DNA of 64,000 nucleotides from Bryobacteraceae bacterium (GTDB lineage Bacteria; Acidobacteriota; Terriglobia; Bryobacterales; Bryobacteraceae): NCBI GenBank assembly GCA_965226755.1, contig CBDDDT010000005.1:148306-212305 (forward strand), in the 5' to 3' direction. How positions within the stretch are numbered: position 1 is the first letter of the stretch; the number at the start of each line of letters is the position of its first letter. The translations under genes were made by a program, and so were the position numbers. Below, in pieces: positions 22,754 through 34,851 of this stretch. A model generated the notes under the pieces. It searched no databases. It saw nothing but the letters and a program-made list of their open reading frames with translations, and was not told the DNA's origin.

Positions 22754-24163
22754 TTGAACGAATTCTGGAGGCAGGCCGAAGGGCAGCGGCTGGACGGGAT
22801 GTACAACCTGGGCGCGAGCTTGGGGGGCGCCGAGGATAGCGCGGTATTCCCGACACAGTCGCAGGAAGGCCGGCCGGCAGCGGTGAAGATTTGGCGCGGG
22901 GAAGATGGGGACGCCGCGCTGGCGGGGGTGCGGGAGGCCGCGGGGCTGGCGCACCCTCATCTGATTCCCATCTGGGCGACGGGGCGATCGGAGCTGGGCG
23001 GCAAGCCGGTCGTGTATGCGGTGATGGAGCGGGCGGATGAAAATCTGGCGGGCGTCCTGGAAGCACGGGCGCTGAGCGAGGCGGAAATCCGGGAGATGCT
23101 GAGTCCGGCGCTGGAGGCGCTGGTATGGCTGCACGAGAAGGGCTTCGTGCATGGGGCGATGCGGCCGTCGAATGTCATGGCGGCGGGCGAGACTTTGAAG
23201 CTGTCGAGCGATCAGATCCAGCGCGCGGGGGCGACGACGGCGGCGTTCGGGGGAAGCGTCTATGACGCGCCGAGCGACGAACCGGGCGTGGCGGTCGCGA
23301 GCGCGGATGTATGGGCGCTGGGCGTGCTGCTGTTTTACGCGTCGACGCGGCAGTTTCCGGAGTGGGGCGAGAGCGCGAGCGGCGCGCCGATCAATTTAGA
23401 TGCAGTGCCGGCGGGGATTGCGGACATTGTGGAGCATTGCCTGCGATTCGAACCGAGCGGACGATGGACGGTCGGCGAGATTCGGAGCGCGCTGAATGGC
23501 GGGAAGAAGGCGGCCGCGGCGGATTCCCTGCCCGAGCCTGTAGCGGCGACGCCCGTGAAACCGGTTGAGCCGGTGAGAGTGGTTGAGCCGGTTCGGCCGG
23601 AGCCGGTGCGCGAAGCTCCAGCGCGCTTGGCGGCGCCGTTGCGGAGCAGATATCTGGACGAAGTGGAGAAGCCGGCGCGGGAGCGGCCGCAGTGGCTGAT
23701 TCCCGTGGCCGTGCTGTTGGCGCTGGCGGTGTTGATTGTGAGCTGGATGGCGGCGAAGACGGGCGGCGCGGGTCCTCGAACGGTGACGAAAGCGGGGGAA
23801 GCGCCGGTCGCGGGCGCGGCGGCGGTCACTACTCCGGCTCCGATTGCGACTCCGGCTCCGGCGCCAGCGGCCGCGGCGGTTTCGAAGCCGGCGGCGCGCG
23901 ATTCGCGGGGTGGTCACGGGAATACATGGTTCGTGGTGGTGGCGACGTATGTGGACCGGGGCGCGGCGAACCACCGCGCGGCGGAGATCAGCCGGCGTTT
24001 TCCGCGATTCCAGGCGCGCGTTTACGCGCCGCCGGTGACGAACCCGCATCACCTGGTGGTGATCGGCGAGAACCTGACCGAAGAGCAGGCCGACGCGCTA
24101 CGGACGCGCGCGCGAGCGGCGGGGCTGCCGCGCGACGTGTACATCAAGAAATTCCCGGGCTGA
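22754..24163 (+). CDS. Ser/Thr kinase-like (probable pseudokinase) domain, TM and C-terminal SPOR domain
   Basis: AAVK, HPHL, ADVWALGVLL kinase elements; HGAMRPSN replaces HRD; TM around residues 316-337; SPOR-like WFVVVATY...HLVVIG. Confidence 0.85.
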   Translation: MNEFWRQAEGQRLDGMYNLGASLGGAEDSAVFPTQSQEGRPAAVKIWRGEDGDAALAGVREAAGLAHPHLIPIWATGRSELGGKPVVYAVMERADENLAGVLEARALSEAEIREMLSPALEALVWLHEKGFVHGAMRPSNVMAAGETLKLSSDQIQRAGATTAAFGGSVYDAPSDEPGVAVASADVWALGVLLFYASTRQFPEWGESASGAPINLDAVPAGIADIVEHCLRFEPSGRWTVGEIRSALNGGKKAAAADSLPEPVAATPVKPVEPVRVVEPVRPEPVREAPARLAAPLRSRYLDEVEKPARERPQWLIPVAVLLALAVLIVSWMAAKTGGAGPRTVTKAGEAPVAGAAAVTTPAPIATPAPAPAAAAVSKPAARDSRGGHGNTWFVVVATYVDRGAANHRAAEISRRFPRFQARVYAPPVTNPHHLVVIGENLTEEQADALRTRARAAGLPRDVYIKKFPG

Positions 24164-25926: not shown

Positions 25927-26025
25927 AATACAAACAATTTACCAGCGCCCATGTAAGAAGTTAAATGCCAGTTAAATAACATTGGACGTCTGTAAGGAAT
26001 GTAAAACTTTCTTAGATACAATCCG

Positions 26026-26055
26026 TTGACGACAGAAACTCTTTTCGGGTATTCT
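26026..26055 (+). promoter_or_regulatory. Sigma-70-like promoter TTGACG-N18-TATTCT
   Basis: Near-consensus hexamers 30 nt upstream of ATG 26085 in an AT-rich intergenic region. Confidence 0.55.
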
Positions 26056-26084
26056 TGAAATCGCATTTACATTTTGGAGCGAAT

Positions 26085-26507
26085 ATGGGTGTAGTCGGAC
26101 TAAACCACGAGTACCACCTGCAGACGGAGCTCTCGTTCGCAGGTTTCGCCTCGATGAAGCGATTGCTCCGGGAAGGGGACCTGGCTCTGGTAGCGGGCGA
26201 CCGGAAACTATTGAGGAAGTTGCGCGTCGAGCGGCTGCGCATTTTCCGGCAGTTTGTGCGATGCCTGTCGCGGGAGATCAATCAAATTCAAGCGAAGCAG
26301 CGGGAGCAGGCGAACGCATTGGGCCGTTTCGACGCCAAGGGGTTCGCGCGCAAACGGATTTACGCGTTAGCGATGATTACGGGGTTGCGGATGGCGGGCT
26401 ATTCGTATGCGCTGCGATTGCCAGTGTCCGCGAACTTCGCTGATCAGATTCTTTTCTCGGTGGAATACATGTTCTTTAGTGCAAGCCCTTCGACGGCGAC
26501 CATTTGA
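26085..26507 (+). CDS. Hypothetical 140-aa basic alpha-helical protein
   Basis: GGAG RBS and promoter support ATG 26085. Arg-rich helices (RLRIFRQFVRCLSRE). Its 3' end overlaps the convergent 7-TM gene. Confidence 0.75.
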   Translation: MGVVGLNHEYHLQTELSFAGFASMKRLLREGDLALVAGDRKLLRKLRVERLRIFRQFVRCLSREINQIQAKQREQANALGRFDAKGFARKRIYALAMITGLRMAGYSYALRLPVSANFADQILFSVEYMFFSASPSTATI

Positions 26508-27264
26508 AGCTTCTGAGGAACTGATTGGAAGCGGCCTCCCACCGGTCGATCACCTCGACTTCGCGGGGCGTTGGCGGTCGTGCCGTTTCGAGAATTTCCC
26601 CGGATTTCCCGAGCAGCGCGGTCCAAAGGCAGAAGCAAGTGGCGGTGAGGAGTTGAAGGACTTTGCCGACTCGCGCGGCGTTCCCGCCAGCGCTCAAACG
26701 CATGGCGAACAGCGACATCCCTGAGATGAAGAAGTAGGCCGCTCCGACGCGTTCGATGACGAGGACGTTGCGGCGAGTGGGAACGCTGATCACGGCGAAG
26801 GAGACGGCCACCAGCACGAGAAAGATGGCGATCGCGGTGGTGGAGTAGCGGGCGGTGCTGACCGCGGCGGCGACAAGGCCCCAATCGGGCGCATTCAGTT
26901 CGAAGCGGAGCAAGAGCGCGGAACCGAACAGCGCGGTCGCCACCACGGCCAGCAGGAATTTAACCACGCTCCCTATCCCGCGGTAATGACTTAAATGAAT
27001 GGCGAAGATTTCCGCTCCGAGGCTGAACTGCGTGAAGACGGCAATCACGGAAATGAGAGCATACACGCGGTTATAGTCGTGCACGCCCTGCCGGCTTGTA
27101 AGGACGCCTAACAGCACCAGCGACGAGGCAAGGTCAAACATGACCCAAGCGGTGAAGGCCGGGTAGCGCCTGACCAGGCCGGCGGCGATGAGCCGGACGG
27201 TCAGACACGCCTCGGCCCCCATCGCCAGATACCAGCACCATCTAAACAGATGAATCTCGTCCAC
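26476..27264 (-). CDS. 7-TM hypothetical membrane protein, candidate peptide receptor
   Basis: Seven hydrophobic segments by eye plus a cytoplasmic-type tail of about 44 aa; no kinase, cyclase or HTH domain visible. Confidence 0.8.
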   Translation of the reverse strand: MDEIHLFRWCWYLAMGAEACLTVRLIAAGLVRRYPAFTAWVMFDLASSLVLLGVLTSRQGVHDYNRVYALISVIAVFTQFSLGAEIFAIHLSHYRGIGSVVKFLLAVVATALFGSALLLRFELNAPDWGLVAAAVSTARYSTTAIAIFLVLVAVSFAVISVPTRRNVLVIERVGAAYFFISGMSLFAMRLSAGGNAARVGKVLQLLTATCFCLWTALLGKSGEILETARPPTPREVEVIDRWEAASNQFLRSFKWSPSKGLH

Positions 27265-27329
27265 GGGCGTTTAGCTAAAAGTAAATCGAAAGACGACGCC
27301 GAATGCAACGGGGGATGGTGACGATCCGT

Positions 27330-27449
27330 TCATTTTGGCGGGCACAACGGCGGGCAGTAAGGAGGAGGCGGAATGACCTTGGCCTGTTGGGCAGAAGTCG
27401 CGGCGATGAGGCAGAGGAAGACAAGAGCGGCGGCGCGTGGGAACTTCAT
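27330..27449 (-). CDS. 39-aa secreted Pro/Cys-rich peptide precursor (sORF absent from the ORF track)
   Basis: Manual translation gives MKFPRAAALVFLCLIAATSAQQAKVIPPPPYCPPLCPPK-stop. AAAGGAG RBS 10 nt upstream; Sec-type n/h/c regions. Confidence 0.85.
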   Translation of the reverse strand: MKFPRAAALVFLCLIAATSAQQAKVIPPPPYCPPLCPPK

Positions 27450-27484
27450 CGTTTGAATTCTCCTTTAATCTCAGAAATTGTTGA

Positions 27485-27497
27485 TTGGAATTTCCAA
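27485..27497. promoter_or_regulatory. Inverted repeat TTGGAA-t-TTCCAA upstream of the peptide gene
   Basis: Perfect 6-bp arms about 35 nt upstream of the sORF ATG. Confidence 0.35.
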
Positions 27498-27576
27498 CTA
27501 TTGTCCTCATGAACAATTTGTCTTCCATTCGTAAGCTTCACATCTTCACCACGCAGAAAGCAAGAGAGCGGGTTGA

Positions 27577-28431
27577 TCAGGGTTCGGAAATGATATGGGA
27601 ATCCGTGGAGAATCTTTGATAGTTGCTGTAAATGACTATCTCTTCGAGATTGAAATGCTTCACGAGAGCGCGGGCGGTGACGCGGGCGGTGATGGATTTG
27701 GGGAGCCATACTTCGTTGTTTACGCGGGTGCGCTCCAGAGTGAAGTGGGAACCGCGCGACATTCTCGCAAGGAAAAATCCGAAGGACACATCGTCGAGGA
27801 CTTCGGCTTCGAGGCGGACCCATTCGAGGTCGGATTTGTCGATCCAGATCTTGCCGCGGATGTTCCGCAGGAGATTGGCGTACTTGCCGCGATAGGCGGA
27901 GCGCGGGTCGGCCTGGATGAGATAGCAAGGCCGTCCATCGTGGAGGGAATCGCGCAGTAAAGAGAAGTCGTAGGCGTCGGGGATCATTTTGACGGACTCG
28001 CGCTGTTTGGCGCGTTCGCGCTGATAGTCGGCGAAGCGGCGATCGCGCTCGGACGGGGTCAGCCTGGCGGCTTCGGCCGCGGCCTTATCCAGGCGGGCTT
28101 TCTCTTTGCGAGCCTCCGCGGCCGGAAGCGGCGCGTCGTTTCTGGCAGTGAGGCGTTCGTAACGCTTGCCGCCGAGGAACAAGATGTCGCGGGTTTCCGA
28201 GGTGGTTTTCCGGAGATTGCCGGCGCCGTCGAGTTCTTTGGTGAGATCGTGCTCCTGATAGGTGTACTGACTCGCGATAGCGAGCGCTTCGTTATCCGCG
28301 CGAAGGGATCGAACGACGATGTCATGCGCTTTGATGTCATGCGCTTTGATGTCATGCGCTTTGTTAGGCGCATTGTTGGGCGCGGCGTTTTGCGCGAAGA
28401 CGACGGCGCAGAGGAGCAGGGGAGCGAGCAC
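27577..28431 (-). CDS. Secreted hypothetical protein (beta-rich C-terminus)
   Basis: Signal peptide from GTG 28431 (VLAPLLLCAVVFAQ); GKIWID...WVRLEAE and EVWLP motifs. The upstream part of the 522-aa ORF is antisense shadow of the pirin gene. Confidence 0.8.
   Translation of the reverse strand: MLAPLLLCAVVFAQNAAPNNAPNKAHDIKAHDIKAHDIVVRSLRADNEALAIASQYTYQEHDLTKELDGAGNLRKTTSETRDILFLGGKRYERLTARNDAPLPAAEARKEKARLDKAAAEAARLTPSERDRRFADYQRERAKQRESVKMIPDAYDFSLLRDSLHDGRPCYLIQADPRSAYRGKYANLLRNIRGKIWIDKSDLEWVRLEAEVLDDVSFGFFLARMSRGSHFTLERTRVNNEVWLPKSITARVTARALVKHFNLEEIVIYSNYQRFSTDSHIISEP
28318..28362. repeat. Three perfect 15-bp tandem repeats GATGTCATGCGCTTT (in-frame KAHDI x3)
   Basis: Read directly from the sequence. 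Confidence 0.95.
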
Positions 28432-31515: not shown

Positions 31516-32079
31516 GTGATGAGAACTCTGTTTGCTTTAGCGCTCGCGGCCGCGTCGACGATGACGGCGGCTGCCCAGAATACGCCCCGGCTCGCGCCGG
31601 AATTCGCGGTGAATATGCCGGACGGCAGCCAGAAGCTGCTCAGCTCATTCAAAGGCAAGCCGGTGAGCCTTTCGTTTTTCTTTACGACGTGCCCGCACTG
31701 CCAGGACATGTCGAAGCTGCTGAGCAGCCAGATCGTGCCGGAGTATGCGCCCAAGGGCGTGCAATTTTTGGCGGCGGCATTTGACGACAACGTGGGCAGG
31801 CAGCAGGTGAACGATTTCGCGAGTCAGTTCGTGAAAGGGGCGTTCCCGATGGGGTACACGGATCGGGGCGCGGTGCTCGAATTCCTGCAGAAGTCGATCA
31901 TGACGCCGTTGTATGTGCCGATCATGGTGTTCATCGACCGGAAGGGCATGATTGTGGACGAGTATATCGGGGATCAGAAGTTCCTGTCGGATCCGCCGAA
32001 GAATGTACGGGCGGAGCTGGATAAGATCTTGGCGAAGCCGGCCGTCTCCAAACCGGTCACGCGCATTTCGAAGCGTTAG
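31516..32079 (+). CDS. Secreted TlpA/redoxin-like thioredoxin-fold protein
   Basis: Signal peptide, TTCPHC active site, VPIMVFIDRKG. Confidence 0.88.
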   Translation: MMRTLFALALAAASTMTAAAQNTPRLAPEFAVNMPDGSQKLLSSFKGKPVSLSFFFTTCPHCQDMSKLLSSQIVPEYAPKGVQFLAAAFDDNVGRQQVNDFASQFVKGAFPMGYTDRGAVLEFLQKSIMTPLYVPIMVFIDRKGMIVDEYIGDQKFLSDPPKNVRAELDKILAKPAVSKPVTRISKR

Positions 32080-33855: not shown

Positions 33856-34851
33856 GTGAACAGAATCACAATTAAAACCTTTACCTTGGGCGGTATGCTG
33901 GCAGCGGCAGGAGTGGTTTCGGCGCAAGTCACCGCGACTCCGTCGCCAGCCCAGAGCCCGCAGCCCTCAGCGGCTCCTTCCCACAGTTCTCCGGCGAGCG
34001 CCGGTCCGGCGGCACCGGTTGTCCCGGGGATCACCGCGACCACGGATCCCGACAAAGTTGTCCTCAATATCGACGGCGACAAGATGACGGCCCGCCAGTT
34101 CGACGAAATGATCAAAGCCTTTCCCCCGCAGATTCAACAGGCGGCGAACGGGCCTCAACGGCACCAGTTCATTGAACAGTACGTTCAATTGAAGCTGGCC
34201 GCGAAGGAGGCCGAGAAGCGCAATCTGGAGAGCAAACCGGAGGTCAAGCAGCAGCTCTCCATTCAGCACGACAATGTCCTCGCGCAGGCGCTTTACCAGG
34301 ATCTTTCGGCCAATATCAAGGTGTCCGACGCGGAAATTCAGAAGTACTATGACGACCACAAGAAGGACTACGAAACGGCCAAAGCACATCATGTGCTGAT
34401 CGCCTTCAAGGGTTCTCCGGTAACGCCGAAGGACAAGAAGGAATTGACGGACGCGGAAGCGCTGGCAAAAGCGCAAGCGGTGCAGAAGCGGCTGCTAGCG
34501 GGTGAAGACATCGCCACGGTGGCCAAAGAAGTCTCCGACGACACCAGTTCGCCGACCGGCGATCTGGGAACGTTCAGCCATGGGCAGATGGTTCCGGCGT
34601 TCGATGCGGCCGTCTTCTCGCTGCCGATCGGGAAAGTGAGCGACCCGGTGAAGACGAACTTCGGATATCACGTGATCCGCGTGGATTCCCGCGAGTCGAA
34701 GCCGCTCTCCGAGGTGCGCGCGCAGATCGAGCCGAAAGTGCGCCAGGAGATGGCTAAGAAAGAGATGGACGATTTGCGGTCTAAGAACACCGTCATGATC
34801 GACGATGCGTTCTTCAAGCCGGCGGGGCCGAGCGGCGGTCCGACGAAGTAG
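33856..34851 (+). CDS. PpiC/parvulin peptidyl-prolyl isomerase (PrsA/SurA-like)
   Basis: Signal peptide, AHHVLI, GDLGTFSHGQMVPAFDAAVFSL, TNFGYHVI. Confidence 0.93.
   Translation: MNRITIKTFTLGGMLAAAGVVSAQVTATPSPAQSPQPSAAPSHSSPASAGPAAPVVPGITATTDPDKVVLNIDGDKMTARQFDEMIKAFPPQIQQAANGPQRHQFIEQYVQLKLAAKEAEKRNLESKPEVKQQLSIQHDNVLAQALYQDLSANIKVSDAEIQKYYDDHKKDYETAKAHHVLIAFKGSPVTPKDKKELTDAEALAKAQAVQKRLLAGEDIATVAKEVSDDTSSPTGDLGTFSHGQMVPAFDAAVFSLPIGKVSDPVKTNFGYHVIRVDSRESKPLSEVRAQIEPKVRQEMAKKEMDDLRSKNTVMIDDAFFKPAGPSGGPTK

Follow-up and report, generated by a model that had tools for sequence, protein, structure and literature searches.

In Firmicutes, the Phr, PapR and NprX peptides of the RNPP systems are made as precursors of about 40 residues, in which a Sec signal peptide is followed by a short exported tail. 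In Sec-dependent class II bacteriocins, such as enterocin P, a signal peptide replaces the double-glycine leader, and an adjacent membrane protein confers immunity. In Salmonella, the leader ORFs mgtL and mgtP contain proline codons and precede a gene for a membrane protein. Secretion-monitoring arrest peptides (SecM, VemP, MifM, ApdA and ApdP; PMC7897499; 10.1101/2023.09.02.556018) combine an N-terminal signal with a Pro-containing C-terminal segment, are encoded upstream of a membrane-protein gene and have their arrest site at median distances of 54-133 residues from the localisation signal (10.1101/2023.09.02.556018). Finally, surveys of small ORFs have catalogued unannotated bacterial small proteins (≤50 aa) with Sec signal peptides (e.g., PMC11364881, PMC10723866), the entries being usually backed by multi-genome conservation or by Ribo-seq or proteomics.

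A 39-codon ORF in the DNA of a Bryobacteraceae bacterium (the whole stretch analysed, of 64,000 nucleotides, is called the window here) resembles each of these systems in part. It fits, as an orphan, into the wide category of small, unannotated proteins exported by Sec. With the catalogued small proteins it shares a sub-threshold length, an intergenic position behind a Shine-Dalgarno (SD) sequence, an N-terminal signal peptide and the restriction to one lineage, but the support that it has in place of theirs consists of three polymorphisms, all of them synonymous, and it is atypical in codon usage. Like the Phr, PapR and NprX precursors, its product has about 40 residues and consists of a predicted signal peptide and a short tail; in contrast to them, it has no adjacent RNPP/TPR receptor gene, belongs to a diderm acidobacterial host and shows no sequence similarity. 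As no TPR/RNPP receptor domain was found in the neighbouring ORFs scanned, membership among the RNPP pro-peptides was rejected. With the class II bacteriocins it has in common the signal peptide, a basic mature peptide that contains Cys and a gene for a polytopic membrane protein directly downstream. However, its mature part is of 19 aa, with 42% Pro and no YGNGV-type motif, and the downstream protein, with about seven predicted transmembrane helices (7-TM), matches no immunity, CPBP or PADLOC-type family among those of Pfam and NCBIfam, to which this comparison was confined.

The two cis-acting systems are similarly close in outline and distant in detail. The ORF is very short, has consecutive Pro codons and is followed by a membrane-protein gene, as are mgtL and mgtP, but no attenuator structure was detected around it and it encodes a full signal peptide. 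By contrast with the arrest peptides, its spacer between signal and possible arrest site is of 7-19 residues, it lacks RAPP/RGPP and the other known arrest motifs, and the gene downstream is not secA, secDF or yidC; spacer and genomic context thus led us to reject membership in this group. Our preferred reading, to which we give a probability of about one half, is that the ORF represents a genuine but young, lineage-restricted small gene whose product would be translated and exported by the Sec pathway to the periplasm.

The reading frame, its predicted signal and its neighbours

The ORF lies within a 312-nt gap between two genes of its own direction (minus strand). The features referred to below are, in coordinates of the window:

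27577..28431, minus strand: upstream gene for a LolA-like/TP_0789-like exported protein (P0002, 284 aa); homologues 57-64% identical, one with PF17131
27450..27576, minus strand: AT-rich spacer from the LolA-like stop codon to the ORF; 127 nt, 39% GC, 8 variable sites including a 1-nt deletion at 27517
27460..27466, minus strand: SD-like AAAGGAG, 10 nt before the ATG; the same in all strain-level relatives
27330..27449, minus strand: the small ORF, 39 codons plus TGA; product MKFPRAAALVFLCLIAATSAQQAKVIPPPPYCPPLCPPK
27390..27449, minus strand: predicted Sec/signal peptidase I (SPase I) signal peptide, codons 1-20; n/h/c layout by a heuristic rule
27333..27389, minus strand: predicted mature 19-mer QQAKVIPPPPYCPPLCPPK, codons 21-39
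27336..27371, minus strand: Pro/Cys core PPPPYCPPLCPP; includes CCG-CCT-CCT-CCT, with the rare CCT three times
27265..27329, minus strand: downstream spacer, 65 nt to GTG 27264 or 107 nt to ATG 27222
26476..27222, minus strand: downstream gene for an orphan membrane protein (P0001, 248 aa, ~7 predicted helices)
27373..27456, plus strand: antisense 27-aa ORF with the product MTLACWAEVAAMRQRKTRAAARGNFIV, preceded by TAAGGAGGAGG (27358-27368)

An earlier note on this DNA had pointed to a hidden 39-aa ORF with AAAGGAG 10 nt upstream, and direct translation of 27449..27330 (ATG AAG TTC ... CCA AAA TGA) bears this out. The 10-nt spacer between AAAGGAG (27466-27460) and the ATG reads aattcaaacg. As there is an in-frame TAA 18 nt 5′ of this ATG, 27449 is the sole possible start and no longer version of the ORF exists. 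AAGGAG serves real genes of this genome as SD; it occurs 31 times in the window, in 6 cases ahead of an ORF of 80 aa or more. The GC content is 62.4% in the window and 62% in the ORF.

The N-terminus of the product comprises an n-region, MKFPR (+2), an h-region of 12 residues, AAALVFLCLIAA, and a c-region, T(-3)-S-A(-1), which is followed by Q. This corresponds to the Sec/SPase I layout (an n-region with positive charge, 7-15 hydrophobic residues in the h-region, and residues at -3 and -1 that are small and uncharged), so that the n-region, hydrophobic core and T-S-A site named earlier hold as a predicted signal under a crude rule. A third Cys, C13, falls within the signal peptide, in the middle of the hydrophobic core, but its context is V-F-L-C, with Leu at position -1; the lipobox [LVI][ASTVI][GAS]C does not occur in the 39-mer, and membership among the lipoproteins was consequently rejected. 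There is no twin-arginine motif in the N-terminus of the 39-mer either, and the 12-residue core is below the length needed for a stable membrane anchor. Since a lipobox and a twin-arginine motif are lacking and the core is too short to anchor, a cleavable Sec/SPase I signal is the natural reading. The window has 311 ORFs of 30-70 aa; by the crude n/h/c-region rule, just one of them, that at 27449..27330, was signal-peptide-like. Locally shuffled windows gave 0.77 such ORFs per window, and 0.07 that had a GGAG-type SD as well.

Residue 20 is the last of the predicted signal peptide, residues 27-30 form the Pro run, and the stop codon comes after residue 39. In the predicted mature 19-mer, 8 residues (42%) are Pro, all of them encoded within the last 13 codons, and Cys32 and Cys36, separated by P-P-L, form the sequence CPPLC; the earlier counts of 8 Pro and of two Cys 3 residues apart were therefore correct. 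For this 19-mer we computed a monoisotopic mass of 2072.10 Da in the reduced form and of 2053.05 Da with pyroglutamate and one disulfide, and a pI of 8.9. With pyroglutamate alone the mass would be 2055.07 Da, and a pyroglutamate dimer joined by two disulfides would have about 4106 Da.

With regard to the surroundings, the locus occurs in runs labelled as peat, moss and soil metagenomes, and in several organism-labelled runs. This points to an acidobacterium of peat, moss or soil, which, to judge by the organism labels, seems to be in culture. A scan of GTDB with the LolA-like neighbour returned only two loci, in a Bryobacteraceae MAG and an Acidobacteria gp1 MAG, with 35-37% identity. In relatives, the LolA-like gene is found close to prs and ribosomal-protein genes, and it is through this position that prs was assigned to the vicinity of the locus. 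The 7-TM protein has no homologue but itself among 5.8 billion protein clusters and belongs to no Pfam or NCBIfam family; its AlphaFold model has a pLDDT of 45 and hence was not used. Its gene, on the other hand, has native codon usage, its polymorphisms are synonymous in 9 cases and non-synonymous in 4, and contigs of a soil metatranscriptome (X23) span 26520-27021 of it. It is a real gene under purifying selection, and an expressed orphan itself.

Neither a sigma-70-like promoter nor a convincing terminator was found in the 312-nt gap, the spacer at 27265..27329 having no more than a weak hairpin of 5 bp, followed by a poor T tract. As no promoter or terminator motif separates the genes, the simplest reading is that the LolA-like gene, the small ORF and the 7-TM gene are on one transcript, and the 7-TM gene is probably co-transcribed with the small ORF.

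The wider neighbourhood codes for a GH9 cellulase, a pirin, a protein kinase, a permease, a redoxin, a NIPSNAP protein, a parvulin-type peptidyl-prolyl isomerase (PPIase), an RDD protein and some proteins without family. Ten ORFs in the range 17.4-36.2 kb and the genes next to the ORF yielded no RiPP maturase (radical SAM, YcaO, LanM/LanB, prolyl oligopeptidase, etc.). The earlier statement that none lies nearby held over this range, and the ORF was rejected as a RiPP precursor on the same ground. The redoxin/AhpC-TSA-type thiol oxidoreductase (31516-32079, plus strand) and the parvulin-type PPIase (33856-34851, plus strand) are located 4-6 kb from the ORF for this Pro/Cys-rich peptide, which is most likely a coincidence. 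In addition, a 469-aa protein (22754-24163, plus strand) begins with a protein kinase domain, which is followed by a linker rich in Pro and Ala and by a C-terminal segment; its gene is followed by the convergent gene for the GH9 cellulase, which has a CelD_N domain.

Strain-level variation and distant relatives

The comparative set consists of strain-level relatives only, that is, contigs about 97-98% identical to the window, from runs X4, X5, X6, X10 and X7. These five runs have variant haplotypes, the X7 contig spanning only 27355-27518. Among other runs, X8, X11, X12 and X16 are identical or do not span the ORF, and X13, X15, X17 and X18 do not span it. The variable sites within the ORF are:

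27449, minus strand: start codon ATG>GTG in X4, a valid start being kept
27363, minus strand: P29, CCT>CCG, synonymous
27354, minus strand: C32, TGC>TGT, synonymous
27333, minus strand: K39, AAA>AAG, synonymous

In codons 2-39, all three substitutions are thus in third position and synonymous (hypergeometric P≈0.017, with 26% of possible changes synonymous and n=3), and no non-synonymous change occurs in ~84 non-synonymous sites, compared with a neutral expectation of 3.8-5.3 (P 0.005-0.02). The ORF is also free of indels; one (1-nt, 27517) is found in the upstream spacer. In no other open frame are all three changes synonymous, and the one antisense frame in which they are has stop codons. 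Two overlapping candidates were rejected: an 85-aa minus-strand ORF is frameshifted by the 1-nt deletion at 27517 and has non-synonymous polymorphisms, and the polymorphisms are non-synonymous in the frame of a 69-aa plus-strand ORF. Low diversity, by contrast, is neither specific to the ORF nor diagnostic, as the 65-nt downstream spacer is equally free of variants among the relatives. With a very small sample of three substitutions, the strain-level pattern fits selection on the 39-codon frame.

Other parts of the locus vary in their own ways among the strains. The 550-nt gap between the GH9 cellulase start and the 7-TM stop (25927-26475), for instance, is hypervariable, with ~30 SNPs and several indels, and contains a 150-aa plus-strand ORF (26055-26507) without Pfam match. 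The N-terminus of the LolA-like protein includes a KAHDI x3 tandem repeat (~28300-28360, minus strand) of variable length, with a 30-nt deletion in X5 and X6, and a 12-nt deletion and smaller ones in X4.

The earlier note had proposed frame conservation and dN/dS in related genomes as a check. At the strain level the frame behaves as that proposal would have it, with its synonymous changes, its GTG start and the lack of indels, but in distant relatives the locus is absent. In fact, neither the ORF nor the 7-TM gene is present in ten contigs with LolA-like homologues 53-64% identical. What follows the LolA-like gene in these relatives includes genes for OCD, ArsC or a GHMP kinase in convergent orientation, one for MreB, an ORF of 982 aa and a 142-aa lipoprotein gene, and the region 3′ of the LolA-like gene is unlike in every relative examined.

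Searches with the peptide itself returned no homologue among 1.84 billion representative proteins (phmmer), none by exact-product look-up or word-index search of protein collections (the latter with one padding residue), and no match in Pfam, NCBIfam, the PDB or plasmids (tblastn). As the peptide is missing from the protein collections and both neighbour proteins are present in them, no gene caller has predicted it. A degenerate DNA motif for PPYCPPxCPP was found at 65 loci of metagenome contigs, all of which were (PPYC)n-type repeats or Arg-rich off-frame noise, none with a signal peptide. A literature search for CPPLC produced nothing relevant, the matches being to Clostridium perfringens phospholipase C and to conotoxin reviews.

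Codon usage, transcripts and the competing explanations

The synonymous-codon score of the ORF is 0.012, compared with 0.465±0.149 for the same peptide with native codon usage (P=0.005) and -0.285±0.235 when it is drawn from background composition. Its overall codon score, -0.148, falls under the 5th percentile for real-gene segments of 40 codons and is matched or exceeded by 35% of small, mostly spurious ORFs. In native genes, CCT is used 66 times versus 396 for CCG, while the Pro run of the ORF uses three consecutive CCT codons. Codon usage speaks against an established gene. Moreover, the 41 likely genes in the window (15,662 aa) contain PPP 3 times and PPPP not once, and a PPPP run would be costly to translate. 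With respect to transcription, two runs of unknown library type, X9 and X22, gave patchy signals without enrichment over flanking translation and housekeeping genes, and in X23, the sole true metatranscriptome, the ORF is not covered, though the 7-TM gene is. At the RNA level, the region 27200-27480 folds with a minimum free energy of -76.4 kcal/mol, compared with -81.6±5.0 for shuffled sequences (z = +1.05), and has no Rfam match. A structured RNA or riboswitch was rejected accordingly, and so was membership among attenuator leader peptides, the 5-bp hairpin being the only structure present.

These codon scores are among the observations that have to be weighed against the preferred reading. 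It is possible, if doubtful, that the ORF is a relic or a chance ORF without selected function, that is, the leftover 5′ end (promoter or SD, signal peptide and Pro-rich linker) of a truncated gene for an exported protein or lipoprotein, perhaps still translated. A codon usage nearer to background than to native genes is consistent with such an origin, and so are the lack of homologues, the failure of any gene finder to call the ORF and the remodelling, in each relative examined, of the region downstream of the LolA-like gene. A lipoprotein of 142/143 aa without Pfam family is encoded 3′ of the LolA-like gene in two of these relatives (L006 5833-6261 and L003 6490-6921, the copies being 68% identical), and in L006 it has the same position and strand as the small ORF. 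Of 208 signal-peptide- or TM-like N-termini, none matches the peptide better than that of the L006 lipoprotein (Smith-Waterman score 56, shuffle p = 0.0005), and that of its L003 orthologue ranks second (score 39, shuffle p = 0.18), while hhalign gives a 47% probability to the alignment of peptide and lipoprotein over 27 columns. Nevertheless, the L006 and L003 lipoprotein genes have no DNA-level similarity to the ORF, their mature domain leaves no trace in the window, the lipobox cysteine is missing from the 39-mer, and a resemblance made of a signal peptide and a PPP linker is easily convergent. The three synonymous substitutions, the start kept as GTG and the indel-free frame also argue against a relic. 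In any case, an origin by truncation and a present-day function are not mutually exclusive.

Two further explanations would make the peptide itself irrelevant or shift attention to the other strand. In the former, which we regard as unlikely, the ORF would be a cis-acting leader in which EF-P-dependent pausing at PPPP, CPP and CPPK near the stop codon tunes the 7-TM gene, located 65-107 nt further on, at the level of transcription or translation. It is established that ribosomes stall on polyproline, that EF-P relieves this stalling and that EF-P is linked to transcription-translation coupling (PMC11611912, PMC5021804, PMC8129111). The short ORF is directly 5′ of a membrane-protein gene with no terminator in between, three of the eight Pro codons among its last 13 are the rare CCT, and polyproline is otherwise avoided in the likely proteins of the window, all of which agrees with a leader. 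A leader ORF, however, has no need of a canonical signal peptide, which is rare by chance, and there are no alternative hairpins or attenuator here, where the fold is no more stable than that of shuffled RNA. Nor would it be a secretion-monitoring arrest peptide, given a signal-to-arrest spacer well short of the medians described above, and neither Pfam nor NCBIfam places the 7-TM protein in a Sec or YidC family. On the other strand, TAAGGAGGAGG, the complement of the CCG-CCT-CCT-CCT proline codons, is a striking, near-perfect SD 4-7 nt before the ATG of the antisense 27-aa ORF. It has TAAGGAGG 7 nt before that ATG and an overlapping second GGAGG 4 nt before it, and the unusual run of three CCT codons could mirror a constraint on the antisense strand. 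A functional antisense ORF, or a role at the RNA level of the CCUCCUCCU run as an anti-SD, seems extremely improbable to us. The 27-aa ORF opposes the direction of the gene cluster, MTLACWAEVAAMRQRKTRAAARGNFIV resembles the typical antisense translation of an Ala-rich region, X4 has the non-synonymous change I26T in this frame, the variant at 27363 hits the antisense SD, and neither excess RNA structure nor an Rfam family was found. The antisense ORF and its SD are probably a by-product of the CCT proline codons.

The peptide under the preferred reading

If the ORF is a young gene for an exported peptide, it would be transcribed together with the LolA-like and 7-TM genes, and its translated product would be directed to SecYEG by the classical n/h/c signal peptide. 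Signal peptidase I would then cleave after T-S-A(20), which would free the basic 19-residue peptide QQAKVIPPPPYCPPLCPPK into the periplasm of a diderm acidobacterium. The gene may stem from the 5′ end of the exported-protein gene that relatives have at this position, and we propose that youth, or this derivation, would explain both the lack of homologues and a codon usage unadapted to the genome. Acidobacteria are diderm, and for this reason the predicted site of export is the periplasm and not the culture supernatant. The description of the peptide as "secreted" in the earlier note is thus kept as regards the predicted Sec-type signal, but we read the product as periplasmic, unless a 2-kDa peptide leaks through porins.

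As for the shape of the peptide, residues i and i+4 are ~12 Å apart in the polyproline-II conformation, and the CPPCP sequence of the IgG hinge forms inter-chain disulfides. By analogy, the Pro-flanked CPPLC probably adopts an extended polyproline-II shape, in which inter-chain disulfides may be at least as plausible as an intra-chain loop. The "disulfide-closed ligand" proposed from the sequence composition, with an intra-chain bond, is possible, and the N-terminal Gln could cyclise to pyroglutamate. Our guess is an extended, polyproline-type peptide with its cysteines oxidised within or between chains, which might have the 7-TM orphan, encoded on the proposed common transcript, as its partner or act at another place in the envelope; the nearest hint to its function that we can infer is indeed this probable co-transcription. 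In a bolder version, which we consider very unlikely, a new-born, species-specific exported micropeptide and the 7-TM orphan would constitute a peptide-receptor or partner module, with PPPPYCPPLCPP as a rigid, hinge-like polyproline rod, disulfide-stapled or dimerised.

At present, the small ORF opens no long-standing question. If real, the peptide, which is well defined in mass (2.05-2.07 kDa), would be another unannotated small exported protein missed by gene callers, and one of odd composition: 42% of it is Pro, and it has a PPPP run, which this genome otherwise avoids. It might also represent a gene that arose very recently next to another orphan, in a phylum of soil and peat that has been little studied.
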